Below are positions 853 to 54,827 of a stretch of 64,000 bases of DNA, one piece after another; positions within the stretch are counted from its first letter, which is position 1, and each line of letters begins with the position of its first letter. A program made the translations under genes and the position numbers. This DNA is from Candidatus Omnitrophota bacterium (GTDB lineage: Bacteria > Omnitrophota > Gorgyraeia > Velamenicoccales > JABMQK01), in NCBI GenBank assembly GCA_028711115.1, contig JAQTSV010000001.1, positions 326,032-390,031 on the forward strand. Direction: 5' to 3'. Under the pieces are notes generated by a model. It had not been told where the DNA came from, ran no database searches, and worked only from the letters and a program-made list of their open reading frames with translations.

Positions 853-2520
853 ATGACTGGCGCACAGATATTTATTGAAGCGTTGAAAAAAGAAAAAGTA
901 GAGGTTATCTTTGGATATCCCGGCGGCCAGGTTCTGCCTATATTCGATAAACTCTATGATTCCGGGCTGCATTTTATTTTGACGCGCCACGAACAAGGCG
1001 CGGCCCACGCGGCCGACGGTTACGCGCGGGCAACCGGAAAAACAGGAGTTTGTATTGCTACTTCAGGCCCGGGCGCAACAAATTTGACAACAGGCATAGC
1101 CAATGCTTATATGGATTCAATCCCTATGGTTGCTTTTACCGGTCAGGTAAAAAGTTTCTTAATCGGTAACGACGCATTTCAGGAAGCGGATATTACCGGT
1201 ATAACGCGTCCGATTACAAAACATAATTATTTAGTAAAAGATGTCAAGGATCTGGCTTGCGTGATTAAAGAGGCATTTCACATCGCCTCGACGGGAAGGC
1301 CGGGCCCTGTGGTTGTGGATATTCCTTCTGATATACAAATGGCGGATACTAATTTCGAATATCCCAATGTTTGCAATATTCGTAGTTATAATCCTACATT
1401 AAAAGGCCATCCCGGCCAGATTAAAAAGGCGGCAAAGGCAATTTCTCAGGCCAAGAAACCCATAATTTATGCCGGCGGAGGCGTAATTATTTCTGAGGCT
1501 TCCGAGGAATTAAACAGATTGGCGGAAAAAATTAAAGCGCCGGTTACCACAACGCTTATGGGCTTGGGCGGATTTAATCAAAGAAGTGAATTGTCTTTGG
1601 GCATGCTGGGTATGCATGGCACAGCTTATGCAAACCACGCGATTATGGGTTCGGATTTGATTATTGCTGTTGGCGCGCGTTTCGATGACAGGGTTACAGG
1701 CAGGCTTGATGCATTTGCGCCGCACGCCCAGATTATCCATATTGATATTGATCCTTCGTCCATCAGTAAAAATATAAAAGTCCATATTCCGATAGTGGGA
1801 GACGCGAAGAATATTTTAAGAGAATTAATCGATGAGATAAAAAAAGTTCCGGATACGTCGCACTGGCTTGGCACGGTAAAAGGATGGAAGGAAAAGTATC
1901 CTTTGCGCTACAGCAATAATACCGACAAGATTAAGCCACAGTATGTTATCGAGAAAATCTGCGAAATCACAAAAGGCCAGGCCATAATCTGCACGGAAGT
2001 CGGCCAGAACCAGATGTGGGCAGCTCAGTATTATACGTATACAAAACCCAGGACGTTTATTTCAAGCGGAGGTTTAGGTACGATGGGTTTTGGCCTTCCG
2101 GCGGCAATGGGCGTCAAGTCTGGTTGCCCCGATAAAATTGTTTTTGATATCGCCGGAGACGGTTCAATTCAGATGAATATTCAGGAACTTATGACTTGCG
2201 TCGCTGAAAAGTTAAATGTAAAAATCGCCATTTTAAACAATGGGTATTTAGGTATGGTCAGGCAGTGGCAGGAGCTTTTTTACAAAAAAAGATATTCCCA
2301 GACTACTTTGGTCAATCCTGATTTTGTGAAATTGGCCGAGGCTTACGGCGCAAAAGGCATACGTGTGTCAAAAAAAGAAGAAGTGGAAAAGGCGATAGTC
2401 CAGGCCATAGAAATCGATAATGTGGTTATGATTGATTTTATCGTCGAGCCGGAGGAAAATGTTTTTCCTATGGTTCCGGCTGGTGAGGCCATTAACAGTA
2501 TGATTGAGGGTTTGGCATAA
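853..2520 (+). CDS. ilvB: Acetolactate synthase (acetohydroxyacid synthase) large catalytic subunit, ThDP-dependent
   Basis: 555 aa. Motifs: [32 protein letters not shown] and the ThDP motif [14 protein letters not shown]...[12 protein letters not shown]. The small subunit gene follows with a TAATG overlap. Confidence 0.95.
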
Positions 2521-2993
2521 TGCGCCACACGATTTCAGTATTGGTTGAAAATAAATTCGGCGTGCTTGCGCGTATAGCGGGATTATTCAGCGCGCGCGGA
2601 TTTAATATTGATTCTTTGGCAGTTGGCGAAACGCAAGATCCGGCTGTTTCCTGTATGACCATAGTCGTCAACGCCGAAGACGAAAGAATATTGGAACAGA
2701 TTAAAAAGCAGCTCCATAAATTGATTGATATTATCACGGTTATTGACCTTACCAAAAAAGAGTTCTTTGAAAGAGAGCTTGTTTTGGTAAAGGTTTCTTT
2801 GGATAAGTCCAATAAGGCGAATTTAGAAAAAATTGCGCATAAGTTTAACGCAGAAATTCTGCATAGCGATAAAGAAAGTGCGATTATCGAGGCAGCCCTG
2901 GAAGAGAAAAATATAGAAGAGTTTCTTTCTGTTTTAAAGGAATTCGGCATAAAACAACTGGTGCGGACCGGCAAGATAGCTATACCTAAATAA
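2520..2993 (+). CDS. ilvN: Acetolactate synthase small (regulatory) subunit, ACT domain
   Basis: 157 aa. HTISVLVENKFGVLARIAGLFSARGFNIDSLAVG is the typical IlvH/IlvN ACT N-terminus. The start overlaps the ilvB stop. Confidence 0.9.
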   Translation: MRHTISVLVENKFGVLARIAGLFSARGFNIDSLAVGETQDPAVSCMTIVVNAEDERILEQIKKQLHKLIDIITVIDLTKKEFFERELVLVKVSLDKSNKANLEKIAHKFNAEILHSDKESAIIEAALEEKNIEEFLSVLKEFGIKQLVRTGKIAIPK

Positions 2994-3031
2994 TATTTTG
3001 GTTAGAGCACAATAACCAGGCGAGGTGTAAT

Positions 3032-3691
3032 ATGAAAAAACAAATTACACTGTTAATAGCAGCGGTTTTTGTTTCTATTTTGCTCAGCGTGTCTTTTTCT
3101 CTTGCTGAGGAAAGAATTACGCTTACTACCTATTATCCTGCGCCTTACGGAATCTACAAAGAACTCCGTGCAGACCAGATGGCAGTAGGAAGTGCTTATA
3201 GAAATTCGGCACTCAATAATGGAACACTCATTGTCTCTGGTAAAGTCGGCATTGGCACGGATAATCCAACCGCAATGTTGCATGTAGCTGGCGCTGGTGG
3301 TTCTTTCCGTTTAGAAAGGACATATCCGCCTGAATGGTTAAGTGGGATGAATTTTTCTTTTCCCAGTGGTTACCCTACTATATATTCAGATACTGGTGAT
3401 CAATTAAGATTTGGAGTTAACGGTAGCGCTACGCCAGTTATAACGATTGCATCTACCGGCAACGTCGGCATTGGTACACCAAGCCCGGCGGCAAAATTAC
3501 ATGTTGCAGGAACCACCCAATTTGACGGTGATGTTTCAGGTTTAGAGCTTGAATTTTACAACTGTACTACATACAGCGTAAGCGGTGGAGGTAGTTGTGG
3601 GGATAACAAAGTAGTAACAAATATATACTCAAATGGTGGCGACTGGGGCGGCGGCGATACTTTCACGTGTTGTAATGTAAGAGTAAAGTAG
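3032..3691 (+). CDS. Secreted hypothetical protein with two G-x-VGIGT-x-x-P-x-A-x-LHVAG repeats and a Cys/Gly-rich C-terminus
   Basis: 219 aa. SD GAGGTG at 3022-3027. Signal peptide KKQITLLIAAVFVSILLSVSFSLA/EE. Repeats GKVGIGTDNPTAMLHVAG (nt 3239-3292) and GNVGIGTPSPAAKLHVAG (nt 3458-3511). C-terminus: CTTYSVSGGGSCGDNKV...GGDTFTCCNVRVK. I do not recognise a characterised family. Confidence 0.7.
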   Translation: MKKQITLLIAAVFVSILLSVSFSLAEERITLTTYYPAPYGIYKELRADQMAVGSAYRNSALNNGTLIVSGKVGIGTDNPTAMLHVAGAGGSFRLERTYPPEWLSGMNFSFPSGYPTIYSDTGDQLRFGVNGSATPVITIASTGNVGIGTPSPAAKLHVAGTTQFDGDVSGLELEFYNCTTYSVSGGGSCGDNKVVTNIYSNGGDWGGGDTFTCCNVRVK

Positions 3692-3700
3692 AGTAAAGTA
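3681..3700 (+). repeat. Perfect 10-bp tandem duplication GAGTAAAGTA x2 spanning the stop codon of the 3032-3691 ORF
   Basis: Read directly: gagtaaagta gagtaaagta at 3681-3700. The stop TAG is at 3689-3691. Confidence 0.9.
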
Positions 3701-3754
3701 GAAATCAAGAGGGATATTTAAAGTTAATTCAATTAATAATTTGAGGAGGAAAAA

Positions 3755-4756
3755 ATGCTGAAAATTTATTATGACAAAGATGCGGATTTGGGGATTTTGA
3801 AAGACAAAACCGTGGCGATTATCGGATACGGAATTCAGGGTAGAGGACAATCTCTGTGTTTGCGCGATTCGGGAATTAACGTAATTGTTTCTGAACTTGA
3901 GGGAACACAGAATTACGAACAGGCAAAGAAAGATGGTTTTACTCCAATGAACGTAGCTGAAGCAGCGCAGAAAGCCGATATCATTCAGATTCTTACTCAG
4001 GATCATGTCCAGGCAAAAGTGTATAACGAAGCCATAAAGCCCAATTTAAAAAAAGGCAAATCTTTATGTTTTTCCCACGGGTTTAACATAAGGTTTAAAC
4101 AGATAAAGCCGCCCAAAAAAGTGGATGTGTTTATGGTGGCGCCAAAAGGCCCGGGCGCATTAGTAAGAAAGATGTACGAAGAAGGAAAAGGCGTTCCGTC
4201 GCTGGTTGCAATATTTCAGGATGCAAGCGGCGATGCCTTAAAAATCGCTTTGGCTTATGCCAAGGCAATTGGCGCGACAAGGGCAGGCGTAATTGAGACT
4301 ACTTTTGAGGAAGAAACCGAAACAGACCTTTTCGGCGAACAGGCAGTCCTTTGCGGCGGAGTTACGGAATTAATCAAGGCCGGTTTTGATACATTGGTGG
4401 AAGCCGGTTATCAGCCCGAGATTGCTTATTTTGAAGTTTTGCACGAATTAAAATTAATTACCGATTTAATTCAGGAAACAGGAATTTCCGGAATGCGCCG
4501 CAGAGTTTCCAATACCGCTTGTTACGGAGATTTAACGCGGGGCCCTATGATTGTCAATCAGAAGACAAGAAAGATAATGAAGAAAATATTAAAAGAAATT
4601 AAATCCGGGAAATTCGCGCGCGAATGGATTAAAGAGAATGAAACCGGCAGAGCCAATTTTGACAGATTATTAAAGCAGGGCGACGAGCATCAGATTGAGG
4701 CAGTTGGTAAAAAACTTCGTGAGATGATGCCTTGGATGCGTAGCGAACGAAAGTGA
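3755..4756 (+). CDS. ilvC: Ketol-acid reductoisomerase (NADP+), class I
   Basis: 333 aa. SD GAGGAGG at 3743-3749. Motifs: [19 protein letters not shown] (Rossmann), [20 protein letters not shown]. Confidence 0.95.
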
Positions 4757-4873: not shown

Positions 4874-6382
4874 ATGGAAAAAATTATTATTTTTGACACG
4901 ACTCTAAGAGACGGCGAGCAGGCGCCGGGCGCAAGTTTAAATCAAAAAGAAAAGTTAGAGATTGCACATCAGCTTGTGCATGTAGGCGTAGATATTATTG
5001 AAGCAGGATTTCCCGTTTCTTCCAAGGGCGATTTTGAGTCGGTGAGACTGGTTGCTTCCAAAGTTAAGGGTGCGACCATTTGCGGCCTGGCCCGTTGTCT
5101 GAAAAAAGACATAGACGCAGCCTATCAGGCCATAAAGATAGCAAAGTCTAATTGTCGTATACACATATTTTTGGCCACGTCCAAAATCCACATGAAGTAT
5201 AAACTGAAAAAGACAGAGGACGAGGTGTTGAAATTAGCCATAGAAGCTGTGCGTTACGCAAAAAGCAAAACCAAAGATGTTGAATTTTCAGCAGAAGACG
5301 CCACGCGTTCTGAGAGAGAATTTCTTTACAGGATAATTGAGAGAGCAATCGACGAAGGCGCAACCACCGTGAATATTCCCGATACTGTGGGTTATTCTGA
5401 TCCGGAGGAATTCGGCTCTTTGATTAGCGATATAAAAAATAACGTTTCCAATATCGACAAGGCGGTAATTTCTGTCCATTGCCATAATGATTTGGGTCTG
5501 GCTGTGGCGAATTCGTTGGCAGCGATTAAGAACGGTGCGCGGCAGGTCGAATGCACAATTAACGGAATCGGAGAACGCGCAGGCAATGCCTCGATGGAAG
5601 AATTGGTTATGGCCATTAAGACACGCCATGATATATTTTCCGGTGTAGATTCTTCGATTAATACAAAAGAACTCTATAAGACTTCGCGCCTGGTGAGCAG
5701 GCTCACGGGATTTGTAGTTGCCCCCAATAAGGCCATCGTCGGGTTGAATGCATTCCGCCACGAATCAGGCATACATCAGGACGGTGTCTTGAAGGAAAAA
5801 CAGACTTACGAAATAATAAAACCGCAGGATGTGGGTTTTATGGAGTCAGGAATTGTTTTGGGTAAACACTCCGGCCGTCATGCCTTTTCGGCGAGATTGC
5901 AATCACTGGGTGTGAAATTGCCGCAGAATAAACTGGATAATGCCTTTGAGAAATTCAAGGCACTGGCAGATAAGAAGAAGACAGTTTACGATGAGGATTT
6001 ATTTTCCATCGTGGAAGAAGAAATAAAGGTTACGCCGAAAGTATGGCAGCTGATTGAATTCAAAGTTTCTTCCGGGACGGGAATGGCTCCCCAGGCCGCA
6101 ATAAAATTAAAGTCCAAAGGAAAAATTCATACCGCCATATCCAGCGGCGACGGCCCAGTCGATGCCTGCTATAAGGCGATTGAGAAAATAATAAGAATAA
6201 AAGCAAAGCTTCTTGATTATCATATCGATTCAGTTACTTCAGGAAAAGATGCCTTAGGCGAGGTGAATGTGAAAATCAGTGCTAAAAACAAATCCGTAAT
6301 TGGCAGAACAGCCAGCACCGATATTATCGAGGCATCTGTCAAGGCCTATATAGAGGCAATCAATAAAATAGCCGCCAAATAA
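4874..6382 (+). CDS. leuA: 2-isopropylmalate synthase (long form with C-terminal LeuA dimerisation/regulatory domain)
   Basis: [35 protein letters not shown] and [11 protein letters not shown], plus a ~120-aa C-terminal regulatory domain. I prefer ATG 4874 (SD GAGG at 4861) over the TTG at 4859 given in the ORF track. Confidence 0.92.
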
Positions 6383-6966
6383 TGCAAGATAACATTGGTA
6401 TTTTTGTATTGGGCATTAGCGTGGTAGTAATTTTGACTGTAGCTGTACGGCAGAATTTATTTCGCGACGTCAATGATATGATTACTACGCTTAAAATAGG
6501 AAGACATAATGTGGAATATCAGCTTGCTCCGGACAGGCGTAAACCTATAGTGCTCACAGATAAAGAGATGGGTTTAAAACAATTGCATCCGTCGTTCTTT
6601 GGCAGTTTTAACAGAGAAGACTGGCAGGAGTTCTGGGATATAATTTACGGCGTGCATCCTTTGATAAAATTCAGCAATGAGAAATTAGCAGGTGCGGGGA
6701 GGAATTATTCCATAGCAGAAATACAGGAAGTATTAGTCAGGCGTTACCCCGAAGGATTCTCGGGATTTAACGCAGAACAGTGGAAAATTTTCTGGAAAGA
6801 AATTTTTGGTATCATTGATTACAAAATACAAATTCCCAGCCAGGATGAATGGGTCGAAAAACAAAGAGACAAATCCGACAGGAGATTGGATAAAAAGATT
6901 AAACAGGACGATGAGAAGATTTCCGCTACCATTCAAGGCGCAAAAAAAGAAATAGGGGTAGAGTAG
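6382..6966 (+). CDS. Hypothetical membrane-anchored protein with an internal duplicated F-x-(G/S)-F-N-x-E-x-W-x-x-F-W motif
   Basis: 194 aa. N-terminal TM segment IGIFVLGISVVVILTVAV. Repeats FGSFNREDWQEFWDIIYG (nt ~6598-6651) and FSGFNAEQWKIFWKEIFG (nt ~6757-6810). The C-terminus is charged. The start overlaps the leuA stop (TAATG). Confidence 0.6.
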   Translation: MQDNIGIFVLGISVVVILTVAVRQNLFRDVNDMITTLKIGRHNVEYQLAPDRRKPIVLTDKEMGLKQLHPSFFGSFNREDWQEFWDIIYGVHPLIKFSNEKLAGAGRNYSIAEIQEVLVRRYPEGFSGFNAEQWKIFWKEIFGIIDYKIQIPSQDEWVEKQRDKSDRRLDKKIKQDDEKISATIQGAKKEIGVE

Positions 6967-6976
6967 TTTTTAAATA

Positions 6977-7843
6977 ATGAACGGAGAAAAGAGAATATTC
7001 GGCTTAATCGGTTATCCCGTCAAACACAGCCTCTCACCGGCAATGCACAACGCTGGCTTCCGGTATCTCAAAGCCCGCAAAGAAATAAACTACGACGCAG
7101 AATATAAATTATTCGAAGTCAAACCCGAGGATTTGGATAATTTCCTGAATTCTTTGGAAGAAAAAAATATTTACGGCCTGAATGTGACGATTCCGCATAA
7201 AGAAAAAGCCCTTAGTTTTGTAGAGCTCGGAGAAGATTCATCTTGTTTAGAGCAAATTAAAGCCATAAATACTATAGTAAAAAAAGATAATGTTTGGACG
7301 GGTTATAATACGGATATTCCGGGTTTTTCCAGGCACTTAAAAGAAAATATCGACCCTTTGAATAAAAAAGTAGCCATATTGGGCGCTGGCGGCGCAGGAA
7401 AAGCTGTTAGCTATGCAATTGCCAATTCCAAAGCAAAAGAAATTTCTATTTACGATATTGATAAGAATAAAGTAAAAAATATAATAGAAATGATAAATAA
7501 AATATTTGAGGGTTTTGATATAAAATCAGCCGATTCTATTGAACAGCTAAATATTCCGGATAAAGATATACTTATAAATGCAACGCCGGTAGGGATGGAA
7601 GATGCGGACGTTTGTTTGATTAGCGAAAAGATGCTGCATAAGAATTTATTTGTTTATGACCTTATTTATAATCCATCCGAGACAAAATTATTGAAATTAG
7701 CAAAAAAGGTCGGAGCAAAAACCGCTAACGGTTTAAAAATGCTTTTATACCAGGGTATGCTTTCTTTTGAAATATGGACAGGTAAAAAAGCACCAAAGGA
7801 GGAAATGTGGCAGGCTTTATCTTCTCAAATTTCGATAAAGTAG
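6977..7843 (+). CDS. aroE: Shikimate 5-dehydrogenase
   Basis: 288 aa. Motifs: GLIGYPVKHSLSPAMHNAGF, NVTIPHKE, NTDIPGF, GAGGAGKAV. Confidence 0.9.
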   Translation: MNGEKRIFGLIGYPVKHSLSPAMHNAGFRYLKARKEINYDAEYKLFEVKPEDLDNFLNSLEEKNIYGLNVTIPHKEKALSFVELGEDSSCLEQIKAINTIVKKDNVWTGYNTDIPGFSRHLKENIDPLNKKVAILGAGGAGKAVSYAIANSKAKEISIYDIDKNKVKNIIEMINKIFEGFDIKSADSIEQLNIPDKDILINATPVGMEDADVCLISEKMLHKNLFVYDLIYNPSETKLLKLAKKVGAKTANGLKMLLYQGMLSFEIWTGKKAPKEEMWQALSSQISIK

Positions 7844-8613
7844 GTTACAATTTTTTTATTTTTGTTCTGGGGCTGGTAACAGGCAGCTTCCTGAATGTCT
7901 GTATTTATCGCCTGCCGCGGGAACAATCTGTGGTAAAGCCGCGTTCCCGCTGCCCGCATTGTAAAAAAACAATTGCCTGGTATGATAATATTCCTCTTTT
8001 AAGCTATATAATGCTGCGCGGTAAGTGCCGTAATTGTAGTACAAAGATTCCTTTTCAGTATTTTATCGTCGAGCTGCTTACAGCTTTTATGTTTTTATGG
8101 GTTTACAACCAGTTCGGCTTTACAATTTTAAGCCTTATTTATATTATTTTTATTTGTGGTTTAATTATTGCTACTTTTGTGGATTTTAATTTCCGCATTA
8201 TTCCTGACGAAATAAACATAGGCGGTATTATTCTGGGTTTAGTTATCAGTTTCATTTATCCATATCTGCATAATAGCAGCGTTAATATTTTAGGTCTCTA
8301 CAGATCTTTCTTGGGTATAATAATCGGTGGTGGTATAATTTGGATTACAGGCATAATCGGCGATTTCGTATTTAAAAAAGAGACCATGGGCGGCGGAGAT
8401 GTGAAGTTGTTGGCGATGATCGGCGCTTTCCTGGGCTGGAAGATGGCAATTTTGACATTTTTTATAGCTCCAATATTCGGCGCTATCGTCGGCATAATTA
8501 TAAAATTAAGGACAAAAAACAGCCTCATTGCTTATGGTCCGTATTTATCGCTGGCTTCTGTAGTCGTATTGTTCTGGGGAGAAAATATTTTAATGTGGAT
8601 TTTATTCAGATAA
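7807..8613 (+). CDS. pilD: Prepilin peptidase / N-methyltransferase (peptidase A24, PilD/GspO family)
   Basis: 268 aa. Zn-binding CPHCKKTIAWYDNIPLLSYIMLRGKCRNC, multiple TM segments and the catalytic-region motif GGGDVKLLAMIGAFLGW. The exact start is uncertain (GTG at 7807 overlaps aroE by 37 nt). Confidence 0.88.
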   Translation: MAGFIFSNFDKVGYNFFIFVLGLVTGSFLNVCIYRLPREQSVVKPRSRCPHCKKTIAWYDNIPLLSYIMLRGKCRNCSTKIPFQYFIVELLTAFMFLWVYNQFGFTILSLIYIIFICGLIIATFVDFNFRIIPDEINIGGIILGLVISFIYPYLHNSSVNILGLYRSFLGIIIGGGIIWITGIIGDFVFKKETMGGGDVKLLAMIGAFLGWKMAILTFFIAPIFGAIVGIIIKLRTKNSLIAYGPYLSLASVVVLFWGENILMWILFR

Positions 8614-28642: not shown

Positions 28643-29680
28643 ATGCAGATAACAAACAGATTAAAATCCATAATCTCAAAGTTCGCAAACGTAAAGATTC
28701 TGGTCATCGGTGATTTAATCCTCGATGAATATATTTACGGAGACGTGGACAGGATTTCTCCCGAAGCACCCGTCCCTGTGGTCTGGGCAAAAGAGAGAAA
28801 ATTCCTTCCCGGCGGTGCAGCCAATGTGGCGGCAAATATAAGCAGCTTTGGCGCAGGCGTAAACCTTGCAGCCATTGTGGGTAAAGACGATCACGCGCAT
28901 ATTTTATTGTCAGAGCTGAAAAAGAGACATATTGACACCGACGGTGTGCTTGAAGTTTTTAACAGATGTACTTCTGTTAAAACCCGTGTGGTTGCCCGCC
29001 AGCAGCAGATTGTGCGCGTTGACTGGGAGAATACAGAAGAGATAAAAGATAGCCTTCAGGACAAGATAGAGGACTTTATTGGGAAGATTGTGAAAAAGTG
29101 CGACGCTGTGATTATCGAGGATTATGGAAAGGGATTAATCACCCCGCGGCTTGTAACCTGTGCTGTTTCACAGGCAAAGGCAAACAATAAGGTGATTACA
29201 GTAGATCCCAAAGAAGAAAATTTCGAGTATTACAGGGGCGTAACGGCCATAACACCGAATCGCAAAGAGGCAGAAAATGCCATCCGCAATATAAAGATTA
29301 AGAATGCATACAGCAACTTAAGAGTGACCAGCGATAAATTATCCAGGGATAAGGATGTTGATTTGGCAGGCAGAGGATTATTGGAGTATTTGAATTTGCA
29401 GGCTGCATTGATTACTTTGGGCGATAAAGGCATGCGTCTGTTTGAGAAAGGAAAGAAGTCCTATCAGATAGACACAGTGGCCCAGGAAGTATTTGATGTA
29501 TCCGGCGCAGGCGACACGGTGATTGCTGCTTTTACTTTGGCCTTGGCTTGCGGCGCGACGATGCAGGAGGCAGCCACTATAGCTAATTTTGCCGCGGGCA
29601 TAGTCGTAGGGAAAAGCGGTGTGGCCACAACTACTCAGAATGAATTAATTCAAACAATGAAGCATTATAAAAATAGTTAA
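28643..29680 (+). CDS. hldA: D-glycero-beta-D-manno-heptose-7-phosphate kinase (RfaE/HldE domain I only, PfkB family)
   Basis: 345 aa. KILVIGDLILDEYIYGDVDRISPEAPVPVV and DVSGAGDTVIAAF (PfkB signature). No adenylyltransferase domain is fused. Confidence 0.85.
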   Translation: MQITNRLKSIISKFANVKILVIGDLILDEYIYGDVDRISPEAPVPVVWAKERKFLPGGAANVAANISSFGAGVNLAAIVGKDDHAHILLSELKKRHIDTDGVLEVFNRCTSVKTRVVARQQQIVRVDWENTEEIKDSLQDKIEDFIGKIVKKCDAVIIEDYGKGLITPRLVTCAVSQAKANNKVITVDPKEENFEYYRGVTAITPNRKEAENAIRNIKIKNAYSNLRVTSDKLSRDKDVDLAGRGLLEYLNLQAALITLGDKGMRLFEKGKKSYQIDTVAQEVFDVSGAGDTVIAAFTLALACGATMQEAATIANFAAGIVVGKSGVATTTQNELIQTMKHYKNS

Positions 29681-29693
29681 CGAGGAAAAATGA

Positions 29694-30152
29694 ATGCTTT
29701 GGAAAAATGGAGGTTTTACTCTACTTGAATTAATAATAGTTATTATTGTAATTGGAATTCTTGCAACCATTGCGCTGCCGAGATATCAAGGTGTTGTTGA
29801 GAAGACAAGAGTAGCAGAGGCAAAAAGTATGTTATCTGTCATACGTTCTGCACAGATTCGATATTTTGCGCAATACGGAGACTATGCAAACGATATAACA
29901 AAACTAGATATCCAGGTAAGCGATGAGATTGAATCAGGATCTTCTGGTTTCGGCGGTCCCGTTACTTTTGCCGTCGGGAAATATTTTAAATATACTACTT
30001 TTAATGATATTGCGTATATTGGAAAACCCCCACCTTTTGTAAGGGCTATAAGAAAAGATTTTGAAAGAGGCAGTTATAGTCAGTATGAGGTAATCATAAG
30101 CGAAGATGGTACGATATATATACCGAATTCAGAATATCAATATTTATTGTAA
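29694..30152 (+). CDS. Type IV pilin / T2SS pseudopilin-like protein (prepilin N-terminal cleavage/methylation motif)
   Basis: 152 aa. MLWKNG/GFTLLELIIVIIVIGILATIALPRY is a class III signal peptide with Glu at +5. Confidence 0.85.
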   Translation: MLWKNGGFTLLELIIVIIVIGILATIALPRYQGVVEKTRVAEAKSMLSVIRSAQIRYFAQYGDYANDITKLDIQVSDEIESGSSGFGGPVTFAVGKYFKYTTFNDIAYIGKPPPFVRAIRKDFERGSYSQYEVIISEDGTIYIPNSEYQYLL

Positions 30153-30158
30153 AAAACT

Positions 30159-30887
30159 ATGGATGTAGTAGGAATAATTCCGGCGAGATTTAACTCTACG
30201 AGATTTGAAGGAAAAGTCTTGGCTGATATAAACGGCAAACCCATGATACAACACGTCTGGGAAAAGGCCAAACAGTCACAGCTATTGGATGAATTGATTG
30301 TTGCCTGTGACGATGAACGGGTTTATAAAACCGTAAAGGATTTTGGCGGTAAGGCTATTTTTACAGCAAAGGAACATCCGTCAGGCACAGACCGTATAAC
30401 CGAGATAGTCAATCCTTTGGATGTGAAGATTGTAGTAAATATCCAGGCGGATGAACCGATGATTCATCCCTCGATGATAAACGGTGTTATCGAAGAGCTC
30501 CTGGCAGACAAGAGTTTAGTCGTCGCCACTGTGATAAAGAAAATCGAGCGTCCCGACGAAATAGGCGACCCCAATGTGGTAAAAGTCGTATTCGACAAGA
30601 ATAATTTTGCCCTGTACTTTTCGCGTTCAACCATACCTTTTTTAAGAGACGCAGAAACGCAGGGAGTTTGTTACTATAAACATATCGGTTTGTACGCGTA
30701 TACCAAGGATTTTCTGTTTACTTATAAAAATCTCAACCAATCCACATTAGAAAAACTGGAAAAGTTGGAACAACTGCGTATTTTAGAGAACGGTTACAGG
30801 ATTAAAGTCGTGGAGACGAAATTTGAAACCTACGGAGTGGATACTCCCGAAGATTTAATCCGCGTAAGGCAGAATATCAATAATTAG
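30159..30887 (+). CDS. kdsB: 3-deoxy-manno-octulosonate cytidylyltransferase (CMP-Kdo synthetase)
   Basis: 242 aa. Motifs: IIPARFNSTRFEGKVLADINGKPMIQHV, NIQADEP, GVDTPEDL. Confidence 0.92.
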   Translation: MDVVGIIPARFNSTRFEGKVLADINGKPMIQHVWEKAKQSQLLDELIVACDDERVYKTVKDFGGKAIFTAKEHPSGTDRITEIVNPLDVKIVVNIQADEPMIHPSMINGVIEELLADKSLVVATVIKKIERPDEIGDPNVVKVVFDKNNFALYFSRSTIPFLRDAETQGVCYYKHIGLYAYTKDFLFTYKNLNQSTLEKLEKLEQLRILENGYRIKVVETKFETYGVDTPEDLIRVRQNINN

Positions 30888-50110: not shown

Positions 50111-51201
50111 ATACAATAATTTTCTTAATCATCATAAGCGTTTTAATTTTTGTACATGAGTTCGGACATTTATTTATGGCCAGGAGATTGGGCATAAAGG
50201 TAGAAAAATTTTCCTTGGGTTTCGGGACGCAACTTTTCGGTTTTAAATTTAAAGACATAGATTTTAAAATTTGCCTTATTCCTTTTGGCGGTTATGTCAA
50301 GTTGGCAGGCGACAGCCGCCAGGAATATAAAGGAAACCACTGGGAGTATTTTTCCCGTAAGCCCATAGAAAGGGCAAAGATTGTATTCTTCGGGCCATTA
50401 TTTAATTATATCCTGGCGTTTCTGTTATTGTGGGCAGTTTATTGTATAGGCTATCCTCAGATGAACACAACTATCGGTCAGGTATTGGACAACATGCCGG
50501 CAAAAAGCTCAGGAATTTTGGAAAAAGACAGAATTATCTCCGTAGACGGAAAAAAAGTAAATTACTGGTCTGACGTATTGGTGAATATTAAAGAAAGAGC
50601 CATCAAGGATAAAGTAGAGGTAAAGGTTTTGCGCAATAACCAGGAAATCAGTTTCTCCATTGCCCCGCAAGAAAAAGAAGAAAAGGATTTGTTCGGCAAA
50701 ACCAGAAAGGTTACTTTTATCGGCATAGCTCCTTCCGGTGAAATTGTGGAAGAGCGCTACAATATATTTGCGGCATTTTTTGTGAGTTTGTTCCGCATAT
50801 TGCAGTTAACATACTTTACGTTCAAGGCGATAATCTCTCTGATCTTGGGTCACCTTTCTTTAAAAGAGGCAGTGACAGGCCCCGTGGGAATATTTAATAT
50901 TACCAGTGAAGCTGCTAAATACGGTTTCAATGCCTTATTGCATGTGACTTCCATGTTTAGTCTGGCTTTAGCGATTTTTAATGTCCTGCCCATACCGGTT
51001 CTTGACGGCGGGCATCTGTTATTTCTGGGGATTGAGAATTTACGCAAAAAACCATTAAGCGATAAAGTAGAGCAGAGAATTACTGACGTGGGTTTTGGTT
51101 TTATTCTAATCCTTGCGGTATTTATTCTTTTTAATGACCTCATAAGATACGGCTACTGGGATAAATTAAACGGTTATTTAATAAAATGGCACACGAAATA
51201 A
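50107..51201 (+). CDS. rseP: RIP site-2 metalloprotease (M50, RseP family) with a PDZ domain
   Basis: 364 aa. Motifs: HEFGHLFMARRLG (HExxH), a PDZ segment, and NVLPIPVLDGGHLLF. Confidence 0.9.
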   Translation: MNTIIFLIIISVLIFVHEFGHLFMARRLGIKVEKFSLGFGTQLFGFKFKDIDFKICLIPFGGYVKLAGDSRQEYKGNHWEYFSRKPIERAKIVFFGPLFNYILAFLLLWAVYCIGYPQMNTTIGQVLDNMPAKSSGILEKDRIISVDGKKVNYWSDVLVNIKERAIKDKVEVKVLRNNQEISFSIAPQEKEEKDLFGKTRKVTFIGIAPSGEIVEERYNIFAAFFVSLFRILQLTYFTFKAIISLILGHLSLKEAVTGPVGIFNITSEAAKYGFNALLHVTSMFSLALAIFNVLPIPVLDGGHLLFLGIENLRKKPLSDKVEQRITDVGFGFILILAVFILFNDLIRYGYWDKLNGYLIKWHTK

Positions 51202-52271
51202 AACGCAGAAAAACAAGAGTTATAAAAATCGGCAATACCTATATAGGCGGCAGCCATCCTATTTTGATTCAGTCAATGGTAAAGGTGCCTACTAAAAATG
51301 TAAAGAAAGTCTTAAAGCAGATTAGCGAGTTAGAAAAAGCAGGCTGTGAAATTATAAGAGTCGCCGTGAAAGACGAAGAAGACGCCCAGGCGCTTTACAA
51401 AATAAAAAAACAGATAGGCATTCCTCTGGTAGCGGACATTCATTTTAATTATAAATTTGCTTTAAAGGCCATAGATTCAGACGTAGATAAGATACGTTTA
51501 AATCCGGGAAATATTTTTAAAAATAATGAAGTAAAAGAAATAGCCAAAAAGGCGAAAGAAAGAAATATACCTATAAGAGTAGGCACCAATTCCGGTTCTT
51601 TGCGGGATAGTTACTTAAAATTGAAAGATACGGAATTGGCTCTGGTGAGGCAGACTCAGGATTCTATAAAAATGCTGGAAGACTTCGGCATAAAAAATAT
51701 AGTTATTTCTTTGAAGTCTTCTGATATGCTTGAGACAATAGGCGCGTACCGTAAAATCAGCAGATTATACGATTATCCGCTGCATCTGGGCGTGACTGCC
51801 ACAGGTATGTCAGGGCAAGGCATGGTGAAATCATCATTGGGAATCGGCGTATTGTTATTGGAAGGCATAGGTGATACCATAAGAGTGTCTTTGCTGGAAA
51901 ATCCTTTGCAGGAGATTAAGATTGCAAAAGATATTTTAGTTTCGCTGGGCATAAGGAGATTCGGGGCAGATTATATTTGCTGCCCCACATGCGGCCGCTG
52001 CGAAGTAGATTTAAGGAAGAAAGCACAGGAACTTACGCTTAAATTAAACAAATTAAATCACGGGAATACAGATAATTTAACCATTGCTCTTATGGGCTGT
52101 ATGGTCAATGGTCCCGGAGAAGCAAAGCATGCCGATATAGGTATTGCTTTCGGAAAAACAAAAGGTATTCTTTTTAAAAAAGGGAGAATTATCAATACAA
52201 TAGCCCAGGATAGCTGTATCAATGTTTTAATAAGAGAGATAAAAAACAAGGCTCACATGCAGTCTGTCTGA
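51186..52271 (+). CDS. ispG: 4-hydroxy-3-methylbut-2-en-1-yl diphosphate synthase
   Basis: 361 aa. Motifs: IGGSHPILIQSM, IRVAV, ADIHFNYKFAL, IRLNPGN, CPTCGRC, GCMVNGPGE. Confidence 0.93.
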   Translation: MAHEIKRRKTRVIKIGNTYIGGSHPILIQSMVKVPTKNVKKVLKQISELEKAGCEIIRVAVKDEEDAQALYKIKKQIGIPLVADIHFNYKFALKAIDSDVDKIRLNPGNIFKNNEVKEIAKKAKERNIPIRVGTNSGSLRDSYLKLKDTELALVRQTQDSIKMLEDFGIKNIVISLKSSDMLETIGAYRKISRLYDYPLHLGVTATGMSGQGMVKSSLGIGVLLLEGIGDTIRVSLLENPLQEIKIAKDILVSLGIRRFGADYICCPTCGRCEVDLRKKAQELTLKLNKLNHGNTDNLTIALMGCMVNGPGEAKHADIGIAFGKTKGILFKKGRIINTIAQDSCINVLIREIKNKAHMQSV

Positions 52272-52308: not shown

Positions 52309-53568
52309 ATGGAAGACTTAAAGAAGATGATTCAGCATAGATTGGTTAATGATTATGATATTTTATTCCAGGAAAATATTAACGAGGAAAAGATTAGATC
52401 TTATATTGATAAAATCGCAGAGACTTTGCCCAGCAAAGAAAAAGAAGAACTGAAGAACGAAAAGATGCGCAAAGATATCGCCCGGGAGATAATGGACAGT
52501 ATTATCGGCCTGGGGCAGTTAAAGCCGCTCATAGATGACCCCGAGATTACAGAAATTATGGTTAACGGCCACGATAAGATTTATATCGAGCGCAATGGCA
52601 GGATGGAATTGGCGTCAATAAAATTTAACAGCGAAAGAGATTTAATGACTGTTGTCCACAGGATAGTTGCCTTTACCAAAAGGCGCGTAGATGAGTCTAA
52701 CCCGTATGTGGACCTGTCTTTGTCTGACGGCTCCAGAGTCAACATTATACTGCCGCCTTTATCTCTCACAGGCCCGGCTATAACTATAAGAAAATTCTTA
52801 AAAGAGATTAGGACAATCGAAGATTTGGTTTCCCGGGATACTTTAACAAAGGATATGGCGGATTTTCTCATAGCCAGCGTGAAGGCTAAATTAAACATTG
52901 TATTCTCAGGAGCGACAGGAACAGGAAAAACCACAACTTTAAATATGCTTTTAAATTATATTCCCAGCGACGAGCGCATCATTACCATTGAAGATACCGC
53001 AGAGTTAAAGTTGTCTCAGGAAAATCTCGTAAGATTAGAGACGCGCCAGGCAAATGTGGAAGGAAAAGGCATTGTTTCCATTAGGGACTTATTCAGAAAC
53101 TCCTTGAGGATGCGCCCGGACAGAATTATCTTGGGCGAGATTCGTTCAGACGAGGCTTTGGATATGTTGCAGGCTATTTCCAGCGGCCATGGCGGCACCT
53201 TGGCTATTATCCATGCCGGTTCACCGCAGGAAGTCATATCCAGAATTGAGACGATGATAGCAATCTCCAATGCCATGCTGCCGGTGAGCATCATCAGACA
53301 GCAGATAGTCTCTGCCATAGATATTATCGTACATCAGGAGCAGCTAACAGATGGTTCCAGGAAAGTGACCTACATTTCCGAAGTCAGGGAATTCAAAGAT
53401 AACGAAGTGTTGTTGAAAAATATTTTCTCTTTTGAGATAATGGAAGAGAATGCAGATGAAAAAAAGGTTACAGGCAAATGGAAAAAGTCCGGCCCGGCGC
53501 CTTTATTTATAAATAAGTTGAAGAAGTTTGATAAAAAATTTACGGAAGATTTTTTTAAATCCAGTTAG
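52309..53568 (+). CDS. CpaF/TadA-type secretion ATPase (type II/IV secretion system NTPase, VirB11-like)
   Basis: 419 aa. Motifs: ITEIMVNGHDKIYIERNG, Walker A GATGTGKTTTLNML, IITIEDTAEL, MRPDRIILGEIR, GHGGTLAIIHAGS. Confidence 0.85.
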   Translation: MEDLKKMIQHRLVNDYDILFQENINEEKIRSYIDKIAETLPSKEKEELKNEKMRKDIAREIMDSIIGLGQLKPLIDDPEITEIMVNGHDKIYIERNGRMELASIKFNSERDLMTVVHRIVAFTKRRVDESNPYVDLSLSDGSRVNIILPPLSLTGPAITIRKFLKEIRTIEDLVSRDTLTKDMADFLIASVKAKLNIVFSGATGTGKTTTLNMLLNYIPSDERIITIEDTAELKLSQENLVRLETRQANVEGKGIVSIRDLFRNSLRMRPDRIILGEIRSDEALDMLQAISSGHGGTLAIIHAGSPQEVISRIETMIAISNAMLPVSIIRQQIVSAIDIIVHQEQLTDGSRKVTYISEVREFKDNEVLLKNIFSFEIMEENADEKKVTGKWKKSGPAPLFINKLKKFDKKFTEDFFKSS

Positions 53569-53585: not shown

Positions 53586-54827
53586 ATGTATTGGTCAAAA
53601 AGTTTTATCCATACCTTAAAAGAGGCTTCGGAAGAAGCCGAGTCAACAAGCCACAGGCTGATGCTTCGCGCAGGCATGATAAAGATGTTGATTTCCGGAG
53701 TTTATTCTTATCTGCCCCTGGGATTAAAGGTGCTGGATAATATAAATAAGATTATCCGTCAGGAGATGAATGCCTTGGGTTCGCAGGAATTATTGATGCC
53801 TTCAATCCAGCCAATTGAGCTTTGGCAGATGACCAAAAGGGATGAGCTGTTAGGCGAGGTAATGATTAGATTCCAGGACAGGAGAGGCAGGAAACTGTGC
53901 CTCGGGCCCACGCATGAAGAGGTGGTTACGGATTTGGCCTCCCGCTACATTCAGTCTTATCGGGACCTGCCTTTTGTTTTATATCAGATTCAGACAAAAT
54001 TCCGTGATGAATTGAGGCCGCGTTTCGGACTTGTCAGAGCCTGTGAATTTATCATGAAAGATGCTTATAGTTTCGATAAAGATACAGAAGGCTTAGACGA
54101 AATCTATGATAAGATGTATAAGGCATACGAGAATATATTCAAAAGATGCGGGCTTGACTTTGTAAGTATTAAAGCCGATCCCGGCGTAATCGGCGGAGAT
54201 GTATCGCATGAATTCTTGGTGCCTGCGGAAAACGGCGAAGACGTCGTATACAAGTGTAATATATGCGGTAATTATTTAAGCGGCAATGATGCAGAAATAG
54301 ATGTCTGTCCGCATTGTAAAAAAGACTTAACCAAGATAAATGCCTTAGAAGTAGGCCATATTTTTAAACTGGGTACAAAATATAGCGATGTATTCGGTCT
54401 GAGATATCTGGATGAATCCGGCAAGGAAAGGCCGGTCATTATGGGTTGTTATGGTATTGGCATCAGCCGTTTAATCCCGGCGATTATCGAGCAGAATAAT
54501 GATGCCGACGGGATTATCTGGCCGAAAGAAGTAGCGCCCTATGATATTTTAGTACTTCCCGTGAATGTAACCGATAAAGACATATTCTCCGCCGCAAAAA
54601 AAGTATATGAAATTCTGGAAAAGAAGAAAATGAAGGTTATTTTAGATGACCGCGATGAAAGGGCAGGCATAAAATTTAAAGATGCAGATTTATTGGGTAT
54701 ACCTTTACGTATTACCATCGGCGAGAAATTTCTGAAGGAAAAAAAGGTGGAAATCAAATCAAGAAAGAGTAAAGAAGTTAAATTATTTAATTTAGATAAA
54801 ATAGAAGAAGCGGTTAAGGGTTTATAA
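53586..54827 (+). CDS. proS: Prolyl-tRNA synthetase, bacterial-type core with the INS editing domain replaced by a short CxxC...CxxC zinc ribbon
   Basis: 413 aa. Motifs: RLMLRAGMI, motif 2 FRDELRPRFGLVRACEFIMKDAYSF, motif 3 GCYGIGISR, and a C-terminal anticodon-binding domain. Between motifs 2 and 3 there are only ~105 aa, including YKCNICGN...VCPHCKK (nt 54255-54317). Confidence 0.85.
   Translation: MYWSKSFIHTLKEASEEAESTSHRLMLRAGMIKMLISGVYSYLPLGLKVLDNINKIIRQEMNALGSQELLMPSIQPIELWQMTKRDELLGEVMIRFQDRRGRKLCLGPTHEEVVTDLASRYIQSYRDLPFVLYQIQTKFRDELRPRFGLVRACEFIMKDAYSFDKDTEGLDEIYDKMYKAYENIFKRCGLDFVSIKADPGVIGGDVSHEFLVPAENGEDVVYKCNICGNYLSGNDAEIDVCPHCKKDLTKINALEVGHIFKLGTKYSDVFGLRYLDESGKERPVIMGCYGIGISRLIPAIIEQNNDADGIIWPKEVAPYDILVLPVNVTDKDIFSAAKKVYEILEKKKMKVILDDRDERAGIKFKDADLLGIPLRITIGEKFLKEKKVEIKSRKSKEVKLFNLDKIEEAVKGL

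Follow-up and report, generated by a model that had tools for sequence, protein, structure and literature searches.

Gene X lies between ilvN and ilvC

The sequence under study is a 64,000-nucleotide stretch from a Candidatus Omnitrophota bacterium (GenBank assembly GCA_028711115.1, contig JAQTSV010000001.1, positions 326,032 to 390,031), here called the window, which carries a single string of about 60 genes on the + strand. Our subject is the complete open reading frame (ORF) at 3032..3691 (+), hereafter named X, which starts with ATG, encodes 219 amino acids plus a stop codon, and very probably specifies a secreted fibre protein of the kind seen in phage tail fibres and in the mosaic adhesive trimer (MAT) fibres of Bdellovibrio. 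Upstream, X is separated by a 38-nt gap from ilvN (2520..2993, +; Pfam ACT_AHAS_ss and ALS_ss_C), and downstream by a 63-nt gap from ilvC (3755..4756, +; Pfam KARI_N and KARI_C); these two genes form the boundaries of what we call the slot, and beyond them lie the 3' end of ilvD followed by ilvB on one side, and leuA on the other. The Pfam calls for the genes of the locus were made on its NCBI copy. A Shine-Dalgarno (SD)-like GAGGTG, as read from the sequence, is located at 3022..3027 (+), 4 nt 5' of the X start codon, in agreement with an earlier note on this DNA, made from the sequence alone, that had described a 219-residue gene with its own SD at this junction. GGAGG-type sites were found at the same distance from the ATG in most of the 85 genes inspected from the family to which X belongs, as defined below.

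The protein is annotated on the NCBI record as 'hypothetical protein PHS93_01465 [Candidatus Omnitrophica bacterium]', with identical sequence, and the same protein also occurs in three Logan assemblies within the range SRR22315506-09. Since a protein search retrieved 166 homologues at E<=1e-3, and the pair of repeat motifs that characterizes X is unique within the six-frame translation of the window, X is not a feature that arose by chance. The G+C content at its third codon positions (GC3) is 0.327 against a window mean of 0.423 (z = -2.2), the second lowest among the 60 genes. A 10-nt tandem duplication, AGAGTAAAGT x2, runs across the X stop codon at 3680-3699, and leaves the protein unaffected as it stands.

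Co-orientation is extreme in the window (positions 1-64000): all of the roughly 60 genes are read from the + strand, 96% of the sequence is coding, and the median intergenic gap is 11 nt. The functions of the genes are mixed, including ilv, leuA and aro genes, a prepilin peptidase, dprA and topA. Because every gene points in the same direction, the ilv context says little about the function of X; indeed, where all genes are co-directional, an odd gene inside a canonical operon is weak evidence in general. Thus, the seeming oddity of X being co-transcribed with the branched-chain amino acid (BCAA) enzymes, which the earlier note had found puzzling, is largely a product of this genome architecture. 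A simple sequence scan found no terminator-like site between ilvN and X, and neither a terminator-like nor a promoter-like site on the + strand in 3692-3754. Since such signals are absent around the gene, read-through from the ilv genes would probably be the likeliest mode of its expression.

X comprises a signal peptide, a conserved module, a two-unit shaft and a variable tip

The N-terminal 25 residues (3032..3106, +) have the features of a Sec-type signal peptide, namely a KK pair, a hydrophobic stretch at residues 6-20, and a predicted cleavage site between SLA and EE at 25/26. Residues 2-23 form a helix in the AlphaFold model, and the pattern ...[FL]A followed by [EQ][ED] across the cleavage site is common to 85 family members. 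The signal peptide proposed earlier is therefore borne out in all these features, while the cleavage itself, placed between A25 and E26, is predicted from the sequence; the mature protein would have about 194 residues.

The predicted mature chain begins with a conserved N-terminal module (residues 26-69, EERITLTTYYPAPYGIYKELRADQMAVGSAYRN...GTLIVS; 3107..3238, +), which constitutes the family signature and the putative docking end, and which contains the core motif TTYYPAPYGIY at residues 32-42 (3125..3157, +). It is followed by the first capping-loop motif, GKVGIGTDNPTAMLHVAG, at residues 70-87 (3239..3292, +), where the local confidence of the model (pLDDT) is about 92. A beta-helix shaft unit at residues 88-142 (3293..3457, +) then leads to the second capping-loop motif, GNVGIGTPSPAAKLHVAG, at residues 143-160 (3458..3511, +), which was identified by PDB alignment as well as from the sequence. 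The unit between the motifs aligned to MAT shaft segments of the form ...MRI/MTI...GNVGIGT in PDB 8ond, 8ojn and 8ol4, and its length differs between the proteins that occupy the same slot in related genomes. The spacing of the two motifs is 73 residues, so that both the TTYYPAPYGIY segment and the two copies of G-x-VGIGT-x-x-P-x-A-x-LHVAG about 70 residues apart, as originally pointed out, are indeed present.

The remainder of the protein is a Gly/Cys-rich variable tip at residues 161-219 (3512..3688, +). The tip contains all four Cys of X (C178, C189, C213 and C214), every one of them in the last 42 residues, along with 9 Gly in the last 45, and terminates in TFTCCNVRVK; the composition and the terminal sequence given earlier were thus accurate, but the number of Cys is four and not five. 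Most of the 166 homologues aligned to the N-terminal 28-77% of X, and none of them was conspicuous as a close homologue of the tip.

The shaft of X is of a known and very common kind

Pfam returned no match to X at E<=10, and the only NCBIfam match was to the flocculation-associated PEP-CTERM protein PepA (NF033554; residues 58-171, 15.6 bits, E 0.011), far below the 80-bit cut-off of that model. With X as query, therefore, no Pfam or NCBIfam model was found for its family; none of the family members is known to have a characterized function, in keeping with the earlier note. PepA itself was rejected as an identity for X on the basis of this score, and also because the C-terminus of X, TFTCCNVRVK, is devoid of a PEP-CTERM sorting signal.

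A phmmer search of the PDB with X matched the Bd2133 fibre (8ond, E 1.5e-9) as well as 8ojn, 8ol4 and 8oml, the E values ranging from 1.5e-9 to 1.5e-2, and all the alignments sat on the shaft and capping-loop unit, '...M(R/T)I...GN(V/L)G(I/L)GT..P...LHV..G'. These entries belong to the MAT fibres of Bdellovibrio bacteriovorus, exemplified by Bd2133 and Bd3182 (Caulton et al. 2024, PMC10769870; PDB 8ond, 8ojn, 8onc, 8ol4, 8oml), in which an intertwined trimeric beta-helix bears 'capping loops' made of this motif. The motif is present in S74-type phage fibres as well, and the consensus in that paper is V-G-G/N-pi-x-x-P-x-x-x-L (PMC10769870). An AlphaFold2 monomer of X, built on 120 homologues, had a mean pLDDT of 74, rising above 90 around both motifs. 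When the model was compared with the PDB by Foldseek, the top matches were Bdellovibrio MAT beta-helix domains alone (E 3e-4, prob 1.0), followed weakly by T4 gp34, and against BFVD there were 82 matches at E<=1e-3, to phage tail fibres or S74 proteins. Sequence and fold searches (phmmer and Foldseek) thus both identify the loops of X as capping loops of the MAT type. Two tail-fibre families of the PHROG collection also matched, namely phrog_9942 (residues 69-165, E 4.4e-15) and PHROG 18345 (residues 120-186, E 2.1e-10), each over the shaft part only. Overall, the shaft of X is of a known, very common structural kind and is not structurally novel. The earlier suggestion that the motif resembles those of fibre- or adhesin-like, beta-rich proteins was well founded, and the clear match to MAT and tail-fibre shafts weakens the case for structural novelty.

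The abundance of this kind of shaft can be gauged from a motif-containing profile, A1, which retrieved 109,376 matches among 1.84 billion representative proteins. The top matches were giant proteins with 25-79 repeats that aligned to profile positions ~10-64 only, and not to the TTYYP part. Since these giant proteins match only the capping-loop half of the profile, the 109,376 matches give the size of the repeat superfamily, and not of the family to which X belongs.

X is a member of a large Omnitrophota-centred family

The family, named TTYYP after its core motif, is defined here by three elements: a signal peptide; within 5-8 residues, the motif [TS][TS]Y[YF]P[SA]PxGxY; and, some 40 residues later, the first VGIGTxxPxxxL loop. 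All three are found in X, where the motif and the loop are at residues 32-42 and 70-87, respectively. Of the 120 homologues listed, 95 share the signal peptide, the module at about residue 30, and the first VGIGTxxPxxxLxV loop about 40 residues past the module, and in all 85 genes inspected the module motif begins 5-8 residues past the predicted cleavage site. The consensus after that site reads (E/Q)(E/D)x(I/L)T(I/L)TTYYP(A/S)PYGxY, then xELRAxxMA(V/I)Gxx(Y), and T33, Y34, P36, P38, G40 and Y42 (X numbering) are invariant in 150 aligned members. Beyond the module there is little uniformity: members carry from 0 to 5 further capping-loop units, range from 130 to 640 residues in length, and end in unrelated C-terminal regions, which are often Cys-rich, with up to 19 Cys. 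Among the 150 members, 12 have a Peptidase_S74 tip, Gp53-like_C, YadA_head, Peptidase_G2 IMC and ApeC are found in one each, and the rest have no Pfam domain.

In the species-representative genomes of GTDB, the module pattern had at least 598 matches, of which at least 570 were confirmed loci. Nearly all the loci among the matches listed are in metagenome-assembled genomes (MAGs) of Omnitrophota, while some are labelled 'uncultured Planctomycetia', and counting the best 80 loci alone already gives 2-5 per genome. In the viral contigs of IMG/VR, six pattern matches were obtained and none was confirmed. The motif strings YYPAPYG, YYPSPYG and TTYYP led to no relevant paper in the searchable literature; no paper linking Omnitrophota with tail fibres or S74 was found, and the survey paper on Omnitrophota (PMC10066038) makes no mention of such fibres. 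As judged from its sequences, TTYYP is a large, multi-copy, undescribed and Omnitrophota-centred family that combines a fixed N-terminal end with interchangeable tips.

The genes adjoining 83 family members in other genomes were co-directional in 60 of 78 upstream and 63 of 65 downstream cases, and were diverse housekeeping genes. Several slots were nonetheless recurrent, namely argH-X (5), MiaB-like-X (4), X-recA (3), X-hisG (3), pheS-X-pheT (2) and tig-X-clpP (2; e.g. P0006), X here standing for any family gene. The kind of shaft is already known; what is new is the family itself, with its defining TTYYPAPYG module and its single-gene cassettes in housekeeping slots.

Two family loci on other contigs deserve description. 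The member whose N-terminal module is most similar to that of X (80% identity) is a 517-residue protein with 5 repeats at L008:232-1785; L008 (JAQTPJ01) is a near relative at the ilv locus that has no X there, and carries this gene on another contig, followed at 1887-2576 by a candidate IS200/RAYT-like transposase, recognized as such by eye. On L006 (1-1675, 7129-9219), the homologue P0015 follows four genes of the prepilin type (N_methyl), and HxsD and radical-SAM genes come immediately after it, an arrangement that may be coincidental given the co-directional gene strings.

The ilvN-ilvC junction is a variable slot

The content of the slot was surveyed in the window and in nine related genomes, the IlvB and IlvN of which are 75-89% identical to those of the window. 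A family gene occupied the slot in 4 of the 10 genomes: X itself in the window, a 186-residue gene in L011, at least three tandem 292-residue copies in L005 (reaching the contig end), and in L090 a 450-residue gene consisting of the TTYYP module with an S74 domain and its SDxxxK motif (SSDLRLKK). In three others (L086, L088 and L089) the slot held a conserved non-coding element of about 260 nt, and in the remaining three (L087, L091 and L092) it was empty, ilvC following ilvN by 14-68 nt. Remnants of X, sought by tblastn and blastn in the slots of L086, L087 and L088, were not found. The four occupants have the N-terminal module in common, whereas their shafts and tips are unrelated. On a neighbour-joining tree of IlvB plus IlvN, the carriers were scattered and did not form a monophyletic group, and the nearest relatives of the window, L086 and L089, are without a family gene in the slot.

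At the DNA level, the window and L011 are about 76% similar from ilvN onwards, across the intergenic region and as far as ~174 nt into X; the similarity is lost after this 5' part and resumes only about 15 nt before ilvC. In L005, the two complete tandem copies differ by 54 non-synonymous and 13 synonymous codon positions, with dN/dS values (Nei-Gojobori) of 1.12 overall and 1.33 in the tip (residues 151-292), while being near-identical in the shaft (residues 61-150, dS 0.016). The near-identity of the shafts, taken with the ratio in the tips, suggests conversion in the shaft, and relaxed or diversifying selection in the tip.

Taken together, the slot contents, the scattered tree, the broken homology with L011, the GC3 of X and the divergence in L005 establish that ilvN-ilvC is a variable slot in which genes have repeatedly been gained, lost or replaced by other alleles, and that X is not a fixed part of the operon, nor its presence a singular accident. 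The earlier note had proposed a survey of relatives for the ilvN-X-ilvC order, and had reasoned that absence from close relatives together with many paralogs elsewhere would point to random insertion of a member of a large family. The outcome is mixed: the paralogs are many, and six of the ten genomes lack the gene at this place, but in four the slot is taken by a family gene, with a tip that differs from genome to genome. X is thus one member of a large family in a variable slot that has been used recurrently.

The ~260-nt element (L086:3975-4240, L088:3975-4234, L089:1428-1687) was examined as an observation in its own right. RNAalifold, run on the three sequences, predicted three hairpins with 54 pairs, 12 of which show compensatory changes, and no Rfam match was obtained; it could represent a structured RNA or a leader located 5' of ilvC, or else a small mobile element. 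Other junctions of the same operon also contain extra genes in some relatives: a DUF4139 gene lies between ilvD and ilvB in L088 (357-1829) and L092 (364-1818), and a gene of the 23S_rRNA_IVP family between ilvB and ilvN in L090 (3077-3448).

Comparison with known systems

The closest parallel to the TTYYP family is offered by the MAT fibres, in which a signal peptide is likewise followed by an N-terminal region conserved in all paralogs and then by a beta-helical shaft with the same capping loop, GN[VL]G[IL]GT..P...LHV. The C-terminal tips are interchangeable in both and fall into S74 and non-S74 subgroups, the tip of X being non-S74; there are many paralogs per genome, and both host lineages are proposed predators or parasites. 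There are also clear differences. X is about 5 times smaller (219 vs ~1000 residues) and has two shaft units only, and its TTYYP module of about 44 residues occupies the position of a beta-rich MAT N-domain of about 130, the two having been compared by description, as the PDB entries are C-terminal MAT fragments. Moreover, X is from Omnitrophota, and the genes of its family are singletons in housekeeping junctions, have tips that are mostly tiny Cys-rich knobs, and are known here from sequence.

Phage fibres and tailspikes (T5 pb1, K1F endosialidase; PHROG 9942 and 18345) have the shaft repeat and its fold in common with X, as well as the plan, in which the end that attaches is conserved and the end that binds the receptor varies, and some family members, including the L090 occupant of the slot, end in S74 with its SDxxxK motif. 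Peptidase_S74 is the autoproteolytic trimerization chaperone of phage fibres and of the S74 subgroup of MAT fibres. X differs from the phage proteins in that it is part of a cellular housekeeping string and not of a tail module, has the signal for Sec export, lacks S74, and carries a module absent from IMG/VR contigs.

At the level of the locus, the situation recalls hypervariable surface loci situated between housekeeping genes, such as the pneumococcal cps locus between dexB and aliA and the O-antigen clusters between galF and gnd. In these loci too, a variable surface determinant between conserved genes shows presence, absence and allele replacement that depart from the species tree; the X cassette differs in being a single small gene with many slots per genome, and homologous recombination would here be the presumed route. 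PepA, lastly, resembles X weakly over the repeat region, but differs from it in the N-terminus in addition to the score and the missing sorting signal described above.

Several specific identities were tried for X and set aside. A trimeric autotransporter (YadA-like) was rejected, as X has no Pfam hit, and among 150 family members a YadA_head repeat is found once and an anchor domain never. A phage-encoded fibre was likewise rejected on account of the flanks (ilvD-ilvB-ilvN and ilvC-leuA), the lack of the module in IMG/VR contigs, and the location of 83 family genes among housekeeping genes. Classification as an S74 protein was also discarded, there being no S74 domain in X (Pfam, E<=10).

Proposed mechanism and alternative explanations

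Our preferred reading, which we consider probable, is that X forms a small fibre or spike that is secreted to the surface and is structurally of the phage-tail-fibre and Bdellovibrio-MAT kind, the gene being one of the alleles of a large Omnitrophota family. In the proposed mechanism, X would be exported by the Sec pathway and its signal peptide cut after Ala25. Three chains would then wind around one another as a short, two-unit beta-helical shaft, with a GxVGIGTxxPxxxLHVAG capping loop closing each unit; it is to be noted that the kind of shaft is demonstrated by sequence and fold similarity, whereas the trimeric state is suggested by analogy and by the family members that bear the S74 chaperone. 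The conserved module (residues 26-69, TTYYPAPYG), being common to all paralogs, would dock the fibre to a shared envelope partner or export route, a role proposed on the strength of this very conservation; the same argument has been made for the invariant N-terminal domain of MAT fibres (PMC10769870). At the other end, the 59-residue Gly/Cys-rich tip, probably with two disulfides, would be the variable part that binds a target surface, be it host, prey or substrate. The ilvN-ilvC junction would be one of many inter-gene slots in which family members are gained, lost and exchanged, the housekeeping flanks, and possibly the conserved 5' module as well, providing the homology for allele replacement by recombination; X itself would have no role in BCAA synthesis.

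Within this reading, the fibre nature of X is the firmest part, whereas an adhesin or recognition role, argued by analogy, has at best about an even chance. A host or prey cell as the target would fit the lifestyle proposed for Omnitrophota (PMC10066038), although self, matrix or substrate may also be considered. These bacteria are ultra-small and are proposed predators or parasites, the genomic evidence being Tad and type IV pili and giant ORFs (PMC10066038).

A number of points weigh against the reading just given. The monomer model has a pTM of 0.42, and its last 50 residues, which make up most of the tip, are of low confidence (pLDDT ~45-60). X has no S74 chaperone or any recognized tip domain, and its ~194 mature residues would give a stub with just two shaft units, whereas MAT fibres are far longer (~1000 residues). 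The low GC3 may stem from amino acid composition or expression level, and not from foreign origin. Lastly, the IlvB plus IlvN tree is a neighbour-joining tree on 474 amino acids with no support values, and the dN/dS values come from one pair of tandem copies with small counts.

Of the alternatives, the one that survives best, though we hold it to be unlikely, is that X serves in the extracellular matrix, in flocs or in self-aggregation, its fibres joining conspecific cells or forming a surface layer instead of recognizing a host or prey. The weak PepA match would place the same repeat in a matrix protein, and the strong SD sites and the housekeeping embedding suggest constitutive, abundant expression; in addition, the lifestyles of Omnitrophota are not settled (PMC10066038). 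Nonetheless, the PepA score is far under its cut-off and X lacks the PEP-CTERM end, while the extreme diversity of the tips within and between genomes, tip dN/dS values of at least 1, and tips of the phage receptor-binding type (S74, Gp53-like_C, ApeC) are more typical of proteins that recognize variable foreign targets.

It is improbable that X is what remains of a prophage or tailocin receptor-binding protein, or a domesticated form of one, left behind between ilvN and ilvC. The shaft does match phage tail-fibre PHROGs and BFVD models, some members do end in the S74, Gp53-like_C or Peptidase_G2 IMC domains typical of phage fibres, and the GC3 of X is atypical. However, there are no phage genes within +/-10 kb of X or beside the 83 family genes examined, the N-terminal module is in no IMG/VR contig, and copies are scattered at 2-5 or more per genome of ~1.5 Mb. 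Furthermore, all members have Sec signal peptides, for which phage tail fibres, assembled in the cytoplasm, have no need.

Marginally less probable again is a secreted polymorphic effector, i.e., a toxin, bacteriocin or Cys-rich peptide precursor, in which the N-terminus serves for delivery or as leader and the variable C-terminus is the active part. The conserved N-terminus with a hypervariable, often Cys-rich C-terminus would suit such a protein, as would the adjacency of P0015 to radical-SAM and HxsD genes, and the many scattered paralogs resemble polymorphic-toxin arrangements and also recall prochlorosin-like ones. Against this, X is followed by ilvC and not by an immunity-like small gene, no maturase or immunity family recurs among the neighbours of the family, the N-terminus is separated from the tip by a bona fide fibre shaft, and the recognizable tips are fibre chaperones or binding domains rather than toxin domains.

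Finally, a functional tie to the ilv operon, with X as an envelope protein for BCAA-related transport or regulation and deliberate co-transcription, is close to refuted and was rejected: the tight embedding (38- and 63-nt gaps, no terminator) and the family genes at the same junction in 4 of 10 genomes speak for it, but 6 of 10 genomes have none there, the occupants have unrelated tips, paralogs lie at many other unrelated junctions, and throughout the window genes of mixed function follow one another in the same direction.

Other genes of the window

Some further genes of the window are recorded here. Like X, a solitary type IV pilin gene at 29694..30152 (+; N_methyl, 1.3e-6; ComP_DUS-like) is inserted among housekeeping genes, with a PfkB-family kinase (28643-29680) before it and a kdsB-like cytidylyltransferase (30159-30887) after it; its GC3 of 0.24 is the lowest in the window, and it represents a second variable surface gene within the housekeeping string. 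A T2SS/T4P-type ATPase (52309..53568, +; T2SSE, 1.2e-52) is likewise a singleton, flanked by ispG (51186-52271) and a class II aminoacyl-tRNA synthetase (53586-54827), and a prepilin peptidase (Peptidase_A24; 7807-8613, +) is set between aroE and aroC within the string of aromatic amino acid genes. Immediately after leuA, with a 1-nt overlap, lies a 194-residue ORF (6382-6966, +) without a Pfam family; the same position holds a gene of 193-198 residues with no Pfam hit in eight of the relatives retrieved, and the gene appears to be coupled to leuA.

Implications for Omnitrophota

At its broadest, the family may be pictured as a phylum-wide, multi-copy arsenal of miniature MAT-like trimeric fibres in Omnitrophota, in which the lineage-specific TTYYPAPYG module would plug every fibre into one common envelope socket and disulfide-knotted tips would be swapped between strains at fixed slots as a host- or prey-recognition repertoire, the slots being single-gene surface-antigen cassettes exchanged by homologous recombination. 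We offer this picture as a conjecture that is possible but doubtful.

Omnitrophota are widespread and uncultured, and the family offers clonable candidates of 130-640 residues for host-range determinants, the shaft of which is related to that of the fibres that Bdellovibrio uses for prey recognition. The TTYYP signature lets its members be found in any MAG, and in streamlined genomes the behaviour of the slots gives population genomics a simple marker for diversification of the cell surface.

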